In this document: positions 1-18,260 of the stretch, piece after piece | Layout of the letters: the number at the start of each line of letters is the position of its first letter | How positions within the stretch are numbered: the first letter of the stretch is position 1 | IMG/VR virus record: IMGVR_UViG_3300015370_000003 | Coordinates: 1 to 45,754 of that record | Length of the DNA stretch: 45,754 bases | Strand: one strand, 5' to 3' | From: a virus | Taxonomy: Duplodnaviria; Caudoviricetes | Translations under genes and position numbers: made by a program | The notes under the pieces: model-generated | What the model was told of the DNA's origin: nothing | Databases searched by the model: none | What the model saw: only the letters and a program-made list of their open reading frames with translations

Positions 1-123
1 AAGGAAAAAACAAGCCGAACAAATAAATAATATATAATTTTATGTTAAATAAGTGGATTAATACAATTCAATGCGGGGATTCCGAAGAATTATTAAAACA
101 ACTGCCTGAAAATTCAATAGACT
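1..123. repeat. Terminal direct repeat / circular assembly overlap (copy at 45632-45754)
   Basis: Bases 1-123 are identical to 45632-45754; the end of ORF 45282..45668 and the start of the MTase run through the join. Confidence 0.95.
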
Positions 124-2708
124 CTGTTGTTTGCGATCCTCCTTACGAACTGGGATTTATGGGTAAAAAATGGGATAACACAGGAATAGCTTATAGGGTA
201 GAATTATGGCGCGAATGTTTAAGAGTGTTAAAGCCTGGTGGACACTTATTATCCTTTGGAGGCACAAGAACCTATCACAGAATGGCAGTAGCTATTGAAG
301 ACGCAGGGTTTGAGGTGAGAGATATGATTGAATGGGTATATGGTTGCTTGTCAGAAGATACAGAAATATTGACTGAAAGTGGCTACAAGCCCTTGCGTAA
401 ACTCACACAATATGATAGAATAGGGGTATATGATATTACAAACAACATTTACAAATGGGAAAGACCGCAAAGGTATAGTGTCTATAAAGTCCACCAAGAT
501 ACCGCTTACCGAATTAAATCAGATTACACAGACCAAATTGTCAGTAGAAACCACCGTTGCCTTGTTGAACGAGAAGGAAAACTTGTATTCATTACCGCAG
601 AGGAACTCAATGAAGTGGAGTATATGCCGACATTGTCAGAAGATTTTTATTCATTACAGGAAAACTCAAATAGGAAACTATTGCTCAAAGAGTTGTTGTG
701 GAAAGGCAAAGGATTGGCTAAAAAACTATTCAGCAAATGGACTGGGGAAAAAATGTCCGAGCAAAGGATTGAAGTTAGAAAAGAACCCAGCTTGGAAAGG
801 TGGAGTAACTTACTGGAGGAAACACGGAAACTACAAGCCGATAAAATATGTGAGGTGTCCGAAGGAGTTTTTACCGATGGCGAGAAAAGATGGATATGTA
901 ATGGAACATCGTTTGATAATGGCTCAATTCTTGGGAATATGTTTAGAGAGAACCCAAGTAGTGCATCATATCAATCACGACCCACAGGACAACCGACTGG
1001 AAAACCTGATGTTATTTCAATCAAACAAGGAACACAAATTACACGAAGGGCGAGAGTTGAGAAAATTGAATACTCAGGCATAATCTTTTGCCCGACTGTT
1101 TCAACAGGGGCTTTTATTGCTCGTAGAAATGGGCAAGTGTTTATTACTGGGAATAGTGGCTTTCCAAAAAGTTTAAATATCGGGAAAAAAATAGACCAGT
1201 TGCAGGGGAATGAGAGGGAAATAACTGGAGAAAATCCTAATTATAGACCAGTATCAGGCAAAGAAGGATATTTAGGCGAAAGTAATTTTAGACAAACAGA
1301 TGGAATGAGTATATCCACCAAAGGAACTTCCGAATGGGAAGGCTGGGGAACTGCGACCAAGCCCGCACACGAACCTATCTGTATGGCACGAAAGCCCCTA
1401 TCAGAAAAGACAGTAGCCGAGAATGTTCTTAAATGGGGAACAGGTGGAATAAATATAGATGAGAGTAGGGTGGGGACAGATGGAGGAACTGCAAAAGGAA
1501 CTTTTCCAAATGAAGATAGTAATGGTATTTATGGCAACGGATTTAATGGTGCTTGTGAAATAAAAGATATTGGTATGGGTCGCTTCCCTGCCAATTTGAT
1601 ACTTTCAGCAGATGAAGACGGACAAGTCAGTGAAGAAGTAAGAGAGTGTTTTCCTGAAACTAATACTCACGGAGGCGGAAAAGTTAAAATACAAAAAGGG
1701 CATTGGTTAAAAGGTGGTTATATTGATTATGATAAGTTAAATAGATACCAAAACGACTCAGGCAACGCCAGCAGATTTTTTCGGGCTATTCCACAAGTGG
1801 TTGACTATAATGATTTTTTAATATACAATAGAAGTATATTAACTAACATTAAACAACTATGTGGACAACACTCAACAAAAAAGAAAACAGATATTATTTT
1901 GGATGGCGTAATAAAGGAAGCCGAAAAGTTTATACAAGACGCAGAGCTTCTTATATTTGGGAACAGCAAAATGGAAAAGTTCCTGACGGATACTGCATCC
2001 ACCACAAAAACCTTGATAGCACAGATGACCGAATTGAAAACCTTGAATGTATTACCAAGCTGGCTCATTATGAAATTCACGGAAGATTACGAGAAGACCA
2101 TAAAATTATTAAAGGAATTGAACACCGAAGATGTCAAAAATGCCGAGAGTATAAACCACTTAATTGCTTTCAAAAGAGAAATGCTGGAACTTATCAGGGA
2201 TATTGCAAGGAATGTAGTTATGGGGAACTCCGAAAATGGCAAATTGAAAACAGAGAACGAGTCAACGCTTACGCCAGAGAATACCAACGAAAACATCAAA
2301 AAGAATATAGGAAAAGAAAAAAACTTTAAATCAATAATATATCAAGCAAAGGCAAGTAAGAGCGAGCGGAATAAGGGGTGTGAGGGGTTGGAGGAGAAAG
2401 TAAAAGTGTTCAATGGGCAATCTGACAAACCAAGTGAAGATATGAAAGATGTAGAGAAAAGATTTACTACACTGCCAAAAGCCAACAACCATCCGACCGT
2501 AAAACCAATCGCCCTTATGGAATACCTTATCAAAATGGTAACTCCTAAAGGTGGAATAGTATTAGACCCCTTTGCAGGTTCAGGCTCAACATTAGTTGCC
2601 TCTAAACAAAATGGTTTTCAGTATATTGGAATAGAATTAGATTTTGAATACTGTAAAATAGCGGAAGCAAGAATTAAAAGCATTAAAAAACAACAAACTT
2701 TAATATAA
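42..2708 (+). CDS. DNA amino-methyltransferase (N6A/N4C, beta class) interrupted by an intein and a second in-frame insertion
   Basis: N-terminal DPPY motif; C-terminal HPTVKP...VLDPFAGSGST; the typical phage MTase segments WVYG/SGFPKS and ASRFF/YQAKAS are each split by an insertion. Confidence 0.95.
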   Translation: MLNKWINTIQCGDSEELLKQLPENSIDSVVCDPPYELGFMGKKWDNTGIAYRVELWRECLRVLKPGGHLLSFGGTRTYHRMAVAIEDAGFEVRDMIEWVYGCLSEDTEILTESGYKPLRKLTQYDRIGVYDITNNIYKWERPQRYSVYKVHQDTAYRIKSDYTDQIVSRNHRCLVEREGKLVFITAEELNEVEYMPTLSEDFYSLQENSNRKLLLKELLWKGKGLAKKLFSKWTGEKMSEQRIEVRKEPSLERWSNLLEETRKLQADKICEVSEGVFTDGEKRWICNGTSFDNGSILGNMFRENPSSASYQSRPTGQPTGKPDVISIKQGTQITRRARVEKIEYSGIIFCPTVSTGAFIARRNGQVFITGNSGFPKSLNIGKKIDQLQGNEREITGENPNYRPVSGKEGYLGESNFRQTDGMSISTKGTSEWEGWGTATKPAHEPICMARKPLSEKTVAENVLKWGTGGINIDESRVGTDGGTAKGTFPNEDSNGIYGNGFNGACEIKDIGMGRFPANLILSADEDGQVSEEVRECFPETNTHGGGKVKIQKGHWLKGGYIDYDKLNRYQNDSGNASRFFRAIPQVVDYNDFLIYNRSILTNIKQLCGQHSTKKKTDIILDGVIKEAEKFIQDAELLIFGNSKMEKFLTDTASTTKTLIAQMTELKTLNVLPSWLIMKFTEDYEKTIKLLKELNTEDVKNAESINHLIAFKREMLELIRDIARNVVMGNSENGKLKTENESTLTPENTNENIKKNIGKEKNFKSIIYQAKASKSERNKGCEGLEEKVKVFNGQSDKPSEDMKDVEKRFTTLPKANNHPTVKPIALMEYLIKMVTPKGGIVLDPFAGSGSTLVASKQNGFQYIGIELDFEYCKIAEARIKSIKKQQTLI
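393..421 (+). promoter_or_regulatory. sigma70-type promoter inside the intein coding sequence, upstream of nested HNH-1
   Basis: TTGCGT(393-398)-17 bp-TAGAAT(416-421) with extended -10 TG; ATG at 430 lies about at the predicted start site. Confidence 0.6.
430..1083 (+). CDS. HNH homing endonuclease overprinted in the +1 frame of the intein (start 430 or 610)
   Basis: CRHC...YCSKSC Zn finger, KNPAWKGG motif, GYVMEHRL...VHHINHDPQDNRLENL HNH core; lies entirely within the intein. Confidence 0.88.
   Translation: MILQTTFTNGKDRKGIVSIKSTKIPLTELNQITQTKLSVETTVALLNEKENLYSLPQRNSMKWSICRHCQKIFIHYRKTQIGNYCSKSCCGKAKDWLKNYSANGLGKKCPSKGLKLEKNPAWKGGVTYWRKHGNYKPIKYVRCPKEFLPMARKDGYVMEHRLIMAQFLGICLERTQVVHHINHDPQDNRLENLMLFQSNKEHKLHEGRELRKLNTQA
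1782..2327 (+). mobile_element. In-frame insertion (~182 codons) without intein motifs, carrying nested HNH-2; boundaries approximate
   Basis: Separates ASRFF from KSIIYQAKASKSER; contains a promoter and an HNH ORF whose stop (2327-2329) coincides with the right edge. Confidence 0.75.
1801..1829 (+). promoter_or_regulatory. sigma70-type promoter for nested HNH-2
   Basis: TTGACT(1801-1806)-17 bp-TACAAT(1824-1829), about 30 bp before ATG 1859. Confidence 0.75.
1859..2329 (+). CDS. HNH endonuclease overprinted in the +2 frame of the MTase
   Basis: YIWEQQNGKVPDGYCIHHKNLDSTDDRIENLECI HNH core; C-terminal CQKC...YCKEC Zn finger; A-rich leader like other genes here. Confidence 0.88.
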   Translation: MWTTLNKKENRYYFGWRNKGSRKVYTRRRASYIWEQQNGKVPDGYCIHHKNLDSTDDRIENLECITKLAHYEIHGRLREDHKIIKGIEHRRCQKCREYKPLNCFQKRNAGTYQGYCKECSYGELRKWQIENRERVNAYAREYQRKHQKEYRKRKKL

Positions 2709-3094: not shown

Positions 3095-3490
3095 ATGACA
3101 AACAAAGAAAAACAAATTGAGTTTCAAAAAAAGTTTGGAGGTGAGATTAAAGGTGATTGGCTGGTTTTTATCGGTGATTTGGATTGCTCTAATAATCAAT
3201 TAACATCCCTACCTGACAATCTTAAAGTTGGTTGTAGTTTGTATTGCTCTAATAATAAATTAACATCCCTACCTGATAATCTTGAAGTTGGCGGTTATTT
3301 TGATTGCTCTGATAATCAATTAACATCACTACCTGATAATCTTGAAGTTGGCGGTGGTTTGTATTGTTCTGATAATCAATTAACATCCCTACCTGACAAT
3401 TTAAAAGTTGGCGGTGGTTTTGATTGCTCTAATAATCAATTAACATCCCTGCCTTATAATCTTGATGTTGGCGGTGAAATTTATAAATAA
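3095..3490 (+). CDS. Leucine-rich repeat protein (5 x 20 aa)
   Basis: Repeats such as LDCSNNQLTSLPDNLKVG; 60-bp DNA repeats at about 3178-3477. Confidence 0.85.
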   Translation: MTNKEKQIEFQKKFGGEIKGDWLVFIGDLDCSNNQLTSLPDNLKVGCSLYCSNNKLTSLPDNLEVGGYFDCSDNQLTSLPDNLEVGGGLYCSDNQLTSLPDNLKVGGGFDCSNNQLTSLPYNLDVGGEIYK

Positions 3491-4537: not shown

Positions 4538-5140
4538 ATGGAAAAAAAATTAAAAATAGAAAAAATAGAATTATATTATTATAAAAATAATGAAAAAATA
4601 GTAACTGATATTAATAATACAGAAACTTATCCAGAAAATATTTCTGGTGATGTAAGTGGAATTTTTGGTAATGTAGGCAGAATTTCTGGTGATGTAGGCG
4701 GAATTTCTGGTAATGTAAGTGGAATTTTTGGTAATGTAAGCAGAATTTCTGGTAATGTAAGCAGAATTTTTGGTAATGTAAGCAGAATTTCTGGTGATGT
4801 AAGTGGAATTTTTGGTAATGTAAGCAGAATTTCTGGTGATGTAGGCGGAATTTCTGGTAATGTAAGTGGAATTTTTGGTAATGTAAGTGGAATTTTTGGT
4901 AATGTAAGCAGAATTTCTGGTGATGTAATTGGAATTTTTGGTAATGTAAGCAGAATTTCTGGTAATGTAAGCAGAATTTCTGGTAATGTAAGCAGAATTT
5001 CTGGTGATGTAATTGGAATTTTTGGTGATGTAAGTGGAATTTTTGGTGATGTAAGCAGAATTTCTGGTGATGTTGATAAATGCGTTATAACAGAAAATGA
5101 TCGCAAAAAAGGAATAAATATTAAAGATTTAATTCAATAA
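4538..5140 (+). CDS. Heptapeptide-repeat (I[SF]G[DN]V[SGI][GR]) solenoid-like protein
   Basis: About 21 tandem 21-bp units at 4640-5074. Confidence 0.75.
   Translation: MEKKLKIEKIELYYYKNNEKIVTDINNTETYPENISGDVSGIFGNVGRISGDVGGISGNVSGIFGNVSRISGNVSRIFGNVSRISGDVSGIFGNVSRISGDVGGISGNVSGIFGNVSGIFGNVSRISGDVIGIFGNVSRISGNVSRISGNVSRISGDVIGIFGDVSGIFGDVSRISGDVDKCVITENDRKKGINIKDLIQ
4640..5074 (+). repeat. 21-bp coding tandem repeat
   Basis: Unit approximately ATTTYTGGTRATGTARGYRGA, contiguous, no unique spacers. Confidence 0.95.
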
Positions 5141-16490: not shown

Positions 16491-16697
16491 ATAAATAGAC
16501 AAAAACAAGGTAATAATTGACAAAATAAGAATAAAATTGTGTAATCTGTGGATAAGTGGGGGGGTGTCTGGTTTCATAGGGGGGTATACATATATATAGG
16601 TAAGGTATTATGTTTAAAGGGTTATAAAGGTATCATGTTTAAAGGGAGGAGAAAACATTTAGGTTTTATATTTAATTTGATAAAATTAGTTTATTTT

Positions 16698-18260
16698 ATG
16701 ATAGAGATAGATAAGAATTTAAAGGAGAGATTGAAGTTATGGGAGATGGGAGATAGGAATGTAGGGGACAGGGAGATGATAATGAAGTTATGTAAGGAAG
16801 ACATAGGATATTGGGTTAACAATTTTATATGGACGTATGATCCGAGGTTAGAGGAGGGGGTGATACCGTTTATATTGTATCCGAGGCAGGAGAAGTTAAT
16901 AATGGAATTGGAGAGGAGTTTAAATTTGACAAGGGGGGGGAGTAAGGTGAACATGTTATTGGATAAGCCAAGGGGAGTGGGAGCGACATGGGCGATAATG
17001 GTATGGATATTGCATCATTGGTTATTTGATGATTTTAGTGTAAGGGTAGGGAGTAGGAAGGAGGATTATGTAGATAAGAGGGGAGAGCCGGACACATTAT
17101 TTAGTAAATTTGATTTTGTATTGGATAGGTTGCCTAGGTGGATGTTGCCAATTGGATTTGATATGGGTAGGCACAGGAGTTCAATGTTATTGGTAAATCC
17201 AAAGAATGGTAACAGTATAAGTGGGGAGAGTGCTAATATTAATTTTGGTAGGGGTGGAAGAAAGAGTGTAATAGTATTTGATGAGTTAGCCTTTTGGGAG
17301 TGGGCGAAGAGTTCATGGGAGAGTGCGGGAGAGGCGACAAATTTCAGATTAGCGATGTCAACGCCGCCTGAGAATGGTAGGGATTCGCATTGGTATAAGT
17401 TATTGAAGGGAGTGAGAGGAGAGGTTAAGGTATTTGAATTTGATTGGAGGGATGTTCCTACAAGGGATGAGAAGTGGTTAAGGGAGCAGAGGTTATCAAA
17501 GAGTGAGGAGGAGTTTGCGAGGGAGGTATTGAAGAGTTTTGAAGGGACGACGGAGGGCAAGGTATATGCTAAAGATTTGATATTGGCGGATATAGGGGAA
17601 TATAAGTATAATCCTAAATTGCCATTGTTTGTGTCATGGGATTATGGGTTGGACGGGGTGGGTTTGATATGGTATCAGAAGAATTTTGAGTTAGATAAGG
17701 TATATATAATAGACAGTTATTATAATTTTGATAAGGTAATAGATTTCTATTTTCCTTTTATAACAGGAGTTGTTGTATCAGGATTATTTGAATATACGGA
17801 AGAGGAGTTGAAGAAGATAAAAGAGCATAAGGAATGGAGGAGAGATATAATACATTATGGAGATCCTGATGTTAAGAAGCGTGATTTGAAGAGTGGTGAA
17901 CGCTTGGTTGATTATTTATATAATAGGGGAATATATATACAGCATGAGGAATGGAATGGAAGGACATGGTTGGATTTAAGGGAAAAGACCAAGTTATTAT
18001 TTCAACGATTATGTATAGATGAGAATAAGAATGAGACTTTATTATCTGCATTAAGGAATGCGAAATATCCCAAGAGAAGGGAAAATTCACAAGCGATAGG
18101 AGCACCGAAGAAGCCGATACATGATTGGAGTTCTCATTTAAGGTCTAGTTTGGAATATTTCGCAGATAATGAACCTGAATTTAATCCGATACAGAGTGTT
18201 GAAGAGATAAGGCAAATGGCTGCGCAAGAAGCTAAATTTAATAAATATGATATAATATAA
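16698..18260 (+). CDS. terL: Terminase large subunit
   Basis: LYPRQ Q-motif, DKPRGVGAT Walker A variant, VFDE Walker B, MSTP, VSWDYG nuclease Asp, HDWSSH; ATG 16698 preferred over GTG 16548. Confidence 0.9.
   Translation: MIEIDKNLKERLKLWEMGDRNVGDREMIMKLCKEDIGYWVNNFIWTYDPRLEEGVIPFILYPRQEKLIMELERSLNLTRGGSKVNMLLDKPRGVGATWAIMVWILHHWLFDDFSVRVGSRKEDYVDKRGEPDTLFSKFDFVLDRLPRWMLPIGFDMGRHRSSMLLVNPKNGNSISGESANINFGRGGRKSVIVFDELAFWEWAKSSWESAGEATNFRLAMSTPPENGRDSHWYKLLKGVRGEVKVFEFDWRDVPTRDEKWLREQRLSKSEEEFAREVLKSFEGTTEGKVYAKDLILADIGEYKYNPKLPLFVSWDYGLDGVGLIWYQKNFELDKVYIIDSYYNFDKVIDFYFPFITGVVVSGLFEYTEEELKKIKEHKEWRRDIIHYGDPDVKKRDLKSGERLVDYLYNRGIYIQHEEWNGRTWLDLREKTKLLFQRLCIDENKNETLLSALRNAKYPKRRENSQAIGAPKKPIHDWSSHLRSSLEYFADNEPEFNPIQSVEEIRQMAAQEAKFNKYDII

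Follow-up and report, generated by a model that had tools for sequence, protein, structure and literature searches.

How does an intein come to carry a nuclease gene in a reading frame other than its own, and what would such a gene do there? The question is raised by the DNA methyltransferase (methylase) gene of a 45.7-kb phage contig with overlapping ends (Caudoviricetes; IMG/VR record IMGVR_UViG_3300015370_000003, 45,754 nucleotides, all of which is called the window here). An initial annotation, made from the sequence, had placed in this gene a 270-residue intein and, in the +1 frame of the same DNA, a zinc-finger/HNH protein. Relatives of the element keep both frames open, share the start codon of the +1 gene and are spread patchily at one conserved site of the methylase. 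From comparison of these sequences we consider it probable (about 0.72) that the intein splices to restore the methylase while a separately initiated HNH protein cuts or nicks empty alleles near the insertion site, and that repair then copies the insert into them.

The intein and the gene in its +1 frame

Positions 345-1154 translate without a stop into 270 residues running from Cys1 to Thr-Gly-Asn, flanked by WVYG and SGFPKS (the slash in WxYG/SGFPK below marks the point of insertion). The annotation of this insert as an intein with C1, the block B motif SRNH and a terminal TGN, splitting WVYG/SGFPKS, is borne out by the translation, by homologues, by empty alleles and by a structure model with a Hint fold. 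Residues C1, H70, C249, T268, G269 and N270 are invariant in 120/120 inteins. Scores against intein profiles are weak and lie below the cut-off (Hint_2, E 0.006; TIGR01445, E 8e-5). In the AlphaFold model, which was built from a 43-sequence alignment, the block mean of pLDDT, the model's predicted local distance difference test, is 86-97 for residues 1-100 and 91-95 for residues 231-270, and the model matches intein/Hint structures, the best of them AceL NrdHF (6zgq, E 1e-6). Residues 109-225 are predicted to be disordered and the profile search of the intein frame gave no nuclease match, in agreement with the annotated lack of a recognisable nuclease in the middle of the intein; the element is therefore not a canonical bifunctional intein.

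The intein is likely to splice by the class 1 route, through Cys1, His70, Asn270 and Ser+1. It shows the class 1 features of a conserved host site with empty alleles, Cys1/His70/Asn270, Ser or Thr at +1 and a Hint fold. The penultimate His of class 1 is replaced by Gly in 120/120 inteins, which is a known variant, since a phage class 1 intein with penultimate Gly is described, in the part of the source available to us, as splicing fully (PMC5050341). A class 3 intein with its WCT triplet was considered and rejected. Cys249 and Thr268 are invariant, but the residue two positions after the block B His is Cys, Val or Ile and not Trp, and Cys1 is kept; it is the absence of this Trp that makes class 1 splicing likely. 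Reading the insert as a group I intron with an HNH gene, across which a host frame is usually closed, is unnecessary because the host frame is open and selected and has a Hint fold.

Between 427 and 1083 the +1 frame contains no stop; it matches HNH_3 (E 5e-10), with the HNH_3 active-site residues intact. Profile searches of both frames thus found the nuclease where the initial annotation had put it, the intein models in the other frame remaining below the cut-off. The annotation had left the start between 430 and 610. The ATG at 430, formed by the Tyr29 codon TAT and the following G, is present in 61/61 relatives of the short class (inteins under 300 amino acids), the exteins of which have 59% TAT; for 37 representatives the fixed TAT-G has P about 1e-10. 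Four close relatives (L082, L163, L165 and L166) lack the ATG at 610, which we rejected as the main start; GAGGA is present upstream of it and it could be a minor start. In many long-class inteins an ATG at codon 47 stands behind AAGGAG. The zinc finger and HNH domain of the initial annotation are therefore retained, and the gene likely starts at 430 and not at 610. With this start, the second frame overlaps the splicing domain itself and not just the middle of the intein. For the N-terminal extension encoded by this overlap, structural comparison gave low-Z POTRA/eL22-like rows only, which we do not take as a fold assignment.

Selection on the two frames

Loci were fetched by the splicing blocks alone (240 in number), and 143 of them hold a complete intein at the methylase site; 126 of these are distinct, and 17 duplicates were dropped. 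The remainder comprise 67 loci at other sites, one of which is a methylase allele with an extein stop, and 30 that are incomplete or truncated. Most of the incomplete loci end with the contig, while L094/L095, L130, L152, L205 and L246 are cut short within the intein; the same set includes a further deletion intein (L158) and a complete intein (L201) in which the +1 HNH is intact and Asn replaces Ser at +1, and which may be unable to splice. The +1 HNH core is uninterrupted in 120 of the 126 distinct inteins. The other six are shorter inteins, five retaining in-register remnants of the HNH and one (L275, 167 amino acids) none. In the mini-inteins L117, L158, L200, L203, L204 and L229 the deletion has left both frames in register, and parts of the +1 gene survive on either side of it.

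An accumulation of +1 stops among homologues, which the initial annotation had named as evidence against its reading, was not seen. Over intein codons 146-236 the 120 relatives have 0 stops in the +1 frame against 261 expected. Control codons have about as many as expected (228 against 195 for codons 1-28 and 213 against 207 for codons 237-270). The deficit extends into the splicing domain: for codons 47-88, which include block B, synonymous codon use predicts 233.7 stops and 1 is present, and 63 sequences that are less than 70% identical have 1 against 118 expected. This stretch is open in the +1 frame in 121/123 inteins at the methylase site and in 2/59 scoreable sister inteins elsewhere.

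Substitutions agree with the stop counts. In 29 disjoint pairs the HNH core has a pNN/pNS of 0.07 for the +1 frame and a pNN/pSN of 0.76 for the intein frame, and across this core the most variable codon position moves from third to first. The frame-specific substitution test proposed with the initial annotation thus indicates strong selection on the HNH frame and a nearly unconstrained middle of the intein frame. For codons 30-88 the same pairs give 0.21 in the +1 frame and 0.10 in the intein frame. Control regions gave +1-frame values of 1.31 and 0.74 (pooled control 1.28). The intein frame has 0 stops where 888 would be expected, a count that is circular since an open frame was required of the set; the fair test is given by loci picked by the HNH alone, in which the methylase frame is open across the HNH in 78/80. 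The out-of-frame nuclease gene is intact and under purifying selection while the host frame is kept open.

These patterns indicate that both frames of the N-terminal overlap are under purifying selection, and that only residues 109-225 of the intein are filler, nearly unconstrained and yet kept open. The initial annotation had described two overlapping proteins, with the intein frame as filler free of stops. This description holds for residues 109-225; the N-terminal splicing part is instead a case of true dual coding.

Alleles of the insertion site and intein-free relatives

The intein is matched by 830 protein clusters, and the 120 of the 830 that were listed are all bounded by C...GN at the WxYG/SGFPK site. 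Fetching alleles by the N-extein alone gave 79, comprising 2 with the intein (carriage of about 2.5% in this one sample of family alleles), 3 with an intein-free HNH insert and 74 with neither. Most of the 77 intein-less alleles read WxYG/SGFPKS directly, and the comparison of alleles with and without the insert therefore came out in favour of the initial annotation. Inteins that are 88-94% identical to that of the window sit in N-exteins that are 69-86% identical (14 proteins). The intein is more alike than its exteins and its alleles are patchy, a pattern that points to horizontal spread.

The full element was not found in cultured phage among 50,697 records. The sole record with both the intein and a +1 HNH is metagenomic (LR756508, a 484-kb uncultured phage; locus L404) and holds a long-class intein. 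At the same site in the same methylase family, gp66 of mycobacteriophage Starcevich has an intein whose LAGLIDADG motifs are in frame and whose +1 frame is closed. Four states of one insertion site are hence known: empty, mini-intein, in-frame LAGLIDADG and +1 HNH. Sister inteins at another site (L253 and most loci of L253-L319) start with CLSEDTE, end with ITGN and have a closed +1 frame; their site reads VPTRVGFQ followed by the intein Cys, and their host gene is presumably a class III ribonucleotide reductase.

The HNH also occurs without an intein. Picking loci by the HNH gave 80, of which 52 have it in an intein and 26 as an intein-free +1 insert. In addition, one locus (L047:2557-3072) has the HNH between two methylase pieces in different frames, possibly a split-gene state, and one (L070:2839-3558) has it antisense to the methylase, possibly an inversion state. 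The 26 intein-free inserts lie in the variable loop GFPK...GTALKP, with likely starts about 15-25 codons downstream and in the same frame. The would-be +1 residue is Gln or Met in 5/22 of these bare alleles, as expected in the absence of splicing. A loop HNH insert is also present in 0/98 scoreable intein alleles.

The bare form already had to spare the methylase frame from stops and probably already recognised the conserved region, and would for these reasons have been pre-adapted to enter the adjacent intein, in which it would take the place of the in-frame LAGLIDADG of the mycobacteriophage intein. After such a capture, the start of the HNH gene would have come to lie upstream, inside the splicing domain. 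Two inteins have the layout of a recent capture: the HNH of L030 is 71% identical in DNA to the bare L021 and starts after the splicing region, over which the +1 frame is closed, and L060 has the same layout. The data fit a history in which, as in collaborative homing, a pre-adapted nuclease was captured and its gene was then extended upstream. It is possible, at rather less than even odds, that a living series leads from the bare HNH insert through just-captured inteins (L030, L060) to the window type, with a new folded N-terminal domain, start and promoter overprinting Hint.

In HNH trees the bare and the intein-borne forms interleave, and a tree constrained to keep 20 bare sequences as one group apart from 28 intein-borne ones is rejected (approximately unbiased test, p-AU 0.002), the rejection falling to p=0.105 without the bare L006, which is 76% identical in DNA to 706-1018 of the window. 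The trees (FastTree plus a 48-row subset) are unrooted and based on 95-133 columns with modest supports, and the interleaving would arise just as well by gene conversion of bare with intein-borne copies. These points tell against reading a history, and with it a direction of capture, from the trees.

The window itself has a second, intein-free insertion further downstream in the methylase gene (Table 1). Since this insertion hides another +1 HNH gene, the methylase gene of the window carries two hidden nucleases. A promoter-like TTGACT-17-TACAAT lies within it at 1801-1829, and relatives of the insertion occur in the same part of the methylase gene in L013/L118 (57-61%) and P0098. More HNH genes, in frames +1 or +2, are present downstream in or just after methylases in L091, L093, L098, L124, L147, L148, L163, L324, L372 and L048. 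The methylase family is a hotspot for out-of-frame nucleases. Elsewhere in the window, the terminase large subunit gene lies at 16548-18260, and the early genes include a small leucine-rich-repeat-like protein (3095-3490) and a small protein with a 7-residue ISGDVSG/IFGNVSR repeat (4538-5140), the minus strand of which is open too at 4627-5106.

Table 1. Positions of the methylase gene, the intein, the overlapping gene and associated features in the window
Feature	Positions	Strand	Evidence or remark
N6/N4 DNA methyltransferase gene, 888-residue precursor, two insertions	42..2708	+	PF01555 E 1e-35; phrog_67 E 1e-69
N-extein, C-terminal end WVYG	42..344	+	WxYG joined to SGFPK in empty alleles
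Intein, 270 residues: Cys1, block B SRNH (His70), block F Cys249, terminal Thr-Gly-Asn	345..1154	+	invariant residues; Hint fold
N-terminal splicing region (residues 1-100)	345..644	+	confident fold in AlphaFold model
Candidate internal promoter TTGCGT-17-TAGAAT, extended -10 TG (predicted)	393..421	+	ends 8 nucleotides before ATG 430
+1-frame gene, 217 residues: N-terminal extension, C4 zinc finger, HNH nuclease	430..1083	+	profile, conservation, selection, stop counts
N-terminal extension of +1 protein, 60 residues, overprinted on splicing domain including block B; modelled hairpin and two helices	430..609	+	stop deficit; pNN/pNS; pLDDT 72-92
Zinc finger CxxC...CxxxC (C66, C69, C85, C89 of +1 protein)	625..696	+	invariant in 21/21 aligned
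Intein-frame filler (residues 109-225), predicted disordered, weakly selected	669..1019	+	pLDDT <50; pNN/pSN 0.76-0.77
HNH_3 core (H179-H180, N188, N192; H202 just downstream)	907..1020	+	profile match; catalytic columns 98-100% conserved in 120
C-terminal splicing region (residues 232-270)	1038..1154	+	+1 gene stops 24 codons short of intein end
Ser+1 nucleophile of C-extein	1155..1157	+	Ser 125/126, Thr 1/126
Second, intein-free read-through insertion, 182 residues, between SRFF and KSIIYQ	1782..2327	+	holds +1-frame HNH gene 1859-2329, HNH_3 E 1.7e-13

Probable initiation and homing, and known systems

According to the mechanism that we favour, the intein in the methylase frame would splice out and leave a restored methylase, and the zinc-finger/HNH nuclease would be translated independently, starting with the ATG at 430. 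Depending on the lineage, separate initiation would be provided by a Shine-Dalgarno site or by an internal promoter within the sequence of the splicing domain. The nuclease is predicted to cut or nick intein-free methylase copies near WxYG/SGFPK, upon which the insert would be copied in (homing); likeness to I-HmuI suggests nicking rather than a double-strand cut.

Candidate signals for separate initiation are present in the relatives. AAGGAG-type Shine-Dalgarno sites stand ahead of ATG29 or ATG47 in many of them (19/61 in the short class). A pattern of the TTGCGT-17-TAGAAT type, a motif chosen post hoc from related sequences, occurs in 15/42 short-class relatives that have no Shine-Dalgarno match, against 1.1 expected, and the candidate in the window scores 8/12. 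Codons 17-18 are fixed as TAC(C/A)AT in 43/45 against about 21 expected from codon use, often 18 nucleotides downstream of TTGACN. A generic promoter scan listed no site before 430. An internal promoter giving a nearly leaderless mRNA in the lineage of the window is a lead. Alternatively, the HNH could be made as a fusion, by +1 ribosomal frameshifting from the methylase/intein frame. The +1 frame is indeed free of stops for a long way upstream of the zinc finger (in 118/120 its last stop lies no further on than codon 45), and several long-class inteins have no obvious ATG plus Shine-Dalgarno site, nor has the window a good one. Frameshifting needs none of the signals described here, so that the ATG fixed by synonymous codon choice (61/61), the Shine-Dalgarno sites at normal spacing before lineage-specific ATGs and the promoter-like motif fixed upstream count against it, and we regard it as quite improbable.

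Beside the post hoc choice of the promoter motif, several results weigh against a separately initiated homing nuclease. The ATG at 430 of the window has no well-placed Shine-Dalgarno site, and a generic promoter count over codons 1-28 is only mildly raised (31 against 19.5 and 15 against 12.6). The +1 alignment drew no match among PDB sequences, Foldseek with the structure model of the +1 protein gave no match, and the best structural row, I-HmuI with Z 4.9 and a root-mean-square deviation of 5.8 over 78 residues, is not a firm match (VIA; all Z <5). Free-standing phage nucleases can, moreover, cut far from their own gene, often hundreds of bases off, as described in the available part of that study (PMC2988022).

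The latter behaviour would suit an HNH that is a selected passenger sheltering in the intein, with a target at some other place in the gene or genome and an intein that moves by co-conversion or not at all. Such a passenger would also be consistent with the persistence of the same HNH family free of inteins (26/80) and with the existence of deleted mini-inteins. However, both HNH forms lie close to one conserved motif, at most about 25 codons away, the loop HNH is found in 0/98 scoreable intein alleles, and it is the whole intein, and not the HNH alone, that is more alike than the exteins; a passenger therefore seems unlikely to us. The nesting of a strongly selected nuclease in a methylase gene, and the recurrence of several unrelated HNH inserts in the methylase family, could instead point to a domesticated nuclease that forms with the methylase a modification/restriction or phage-competition pair of benefit to the phage. 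Against a domesticated pair, 74/79 alleles have neither element, the HNH is exchanged among divergent methylases and lost by deletion, and its architecture is of the homing type, which leaves domestication highly improbable. We give next to no credence to an open +1 frame that is due to chance, assembly error or the amino-acid composition of the intein: the intein profile scores are weak, but such an origin is refuted by the stop-codon and substitution tests with their internal and natural controls, and the same layout recurs in more than 100 distinct sequences. Homing by a separately initiated HNH nuclease is the reading that we retain.

The layout of an out-of-frame nuclease in an intein is, as such, already in print (2025-26). 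Gosselin, Arsenault and Gogarten (bioRxiv 10.1101/2025.01.02.630785) describe, in the part of the preprint available to us, actinobacteriophage inteins with an out-of-frame nuclease in DNA polymerase, minor capsid, terminase and thymidylate synthase. Like the element of the window, these are contiguous inteins with a separate same-strand nuclease open reading frame and an unstructured in-frame middle, and an origin by invasion of a free-standing nuclease, as considered here, is proposed for them. They differ in that their nuclease is endonuclease VII-like and in frame 3, whereas the window has HNH_3 with a zinc finger in the +1 frame of a methylase host, with a reading frame running through block B. 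The cyanobacterial dnaX intein (Phillips, DeSimone and Gogarten, bioRxiv 10.64898/2026.09.14.751524) is similar in that its frames overlap, its dN/dS depends on the frame, a Shine-Dalgarno site precedes the second reading frame, and empty, mini and full alleles coexist. In contrast to the window, its out-of-frame nuclease is a LAGLIDADG, the intein is chromosomal, and the second frame is reported to overlap the disordered stretch that separates the splicing domains; no donor was identified for it, while the nuclease of the window has an intein-free form in the same gene.

Closer by host is the ShiLan domain (Arsenault et al. 2025, PMC11855218), described in the accessible part of the report as an out-of-frame zinc-finger HNH in the same methylase family, with the host frame open. 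It is not an intein, uses frame 3, lies after GWGTALKPS and is 38% identical over 91 residues to the HNH of the window. We rejected ShiLan membership for the element of the window, which has a splicing domain, the +1 frame and another site besides this 38% identity; the bare inserts and the second insertion of the window are ShiLan-like but in another frame and at another site. Non-intein out-of-frame nuclease inserts in methylases are described in the portions available of two reports (PMC11855218; PMC12613952). The Starcevich gp66 intein (Gosselin et al. 2023, PMC9957025, as far as its available text goes) occupies the same site, WLYG/C...TGN/SGFPKS, and its C-terminal splicing region is related to that of the window (47% over 53 residues), but its nuclease is an in-frame LAGLIDADG and its +1 frame is full of stops. 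The precedent named in the initial annotation, alternate-frame endonucleases in actinobacteriophage methylase inteins, thus mixes the non-intein ShiLan HNH with this in-frame LAGLIDADG intein; what stands of it is that out-of-frame nucleases occur in inteins of other hosts. In collaborative homing (Edgell et al. 2010, PMC2988022, in the part available), a nuclease pre-adapted to a site likewise recombines into a splicing element to give a composite element. There the partners are group I introns and intergenic nucleases, whereas here they would be an intein and, as donor, an overlapping gene inside the same host gene. In the literature covered, which includes few subscription journals and some sources in part, no +1 HNH in a methylase intein, no reading frame crossing block B and no intein-free relative in the same gene is described. 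The deep overlap and the intein-free insert form of the nuclease in the same gene appear to be new.

How inteins acquire nucleases is an open question that has so far been argued from rare examples without a donor. Here a close intein-free relative lies a few codons away, which makes cross-cleavage among alleles testable. Over 60 codons one piece of DNA serves both a conserved splicing domain and another protein under selection, which makes this stretch a compact, naturally occurring example of dual coding, and gene callers that report the methylase alone miss the nuclease. If the series from bare insert to window type is true, two ideas would become directly testable: that inteins undergo collaborative homing, and that a domain was born atop the coding sequence of an active site.

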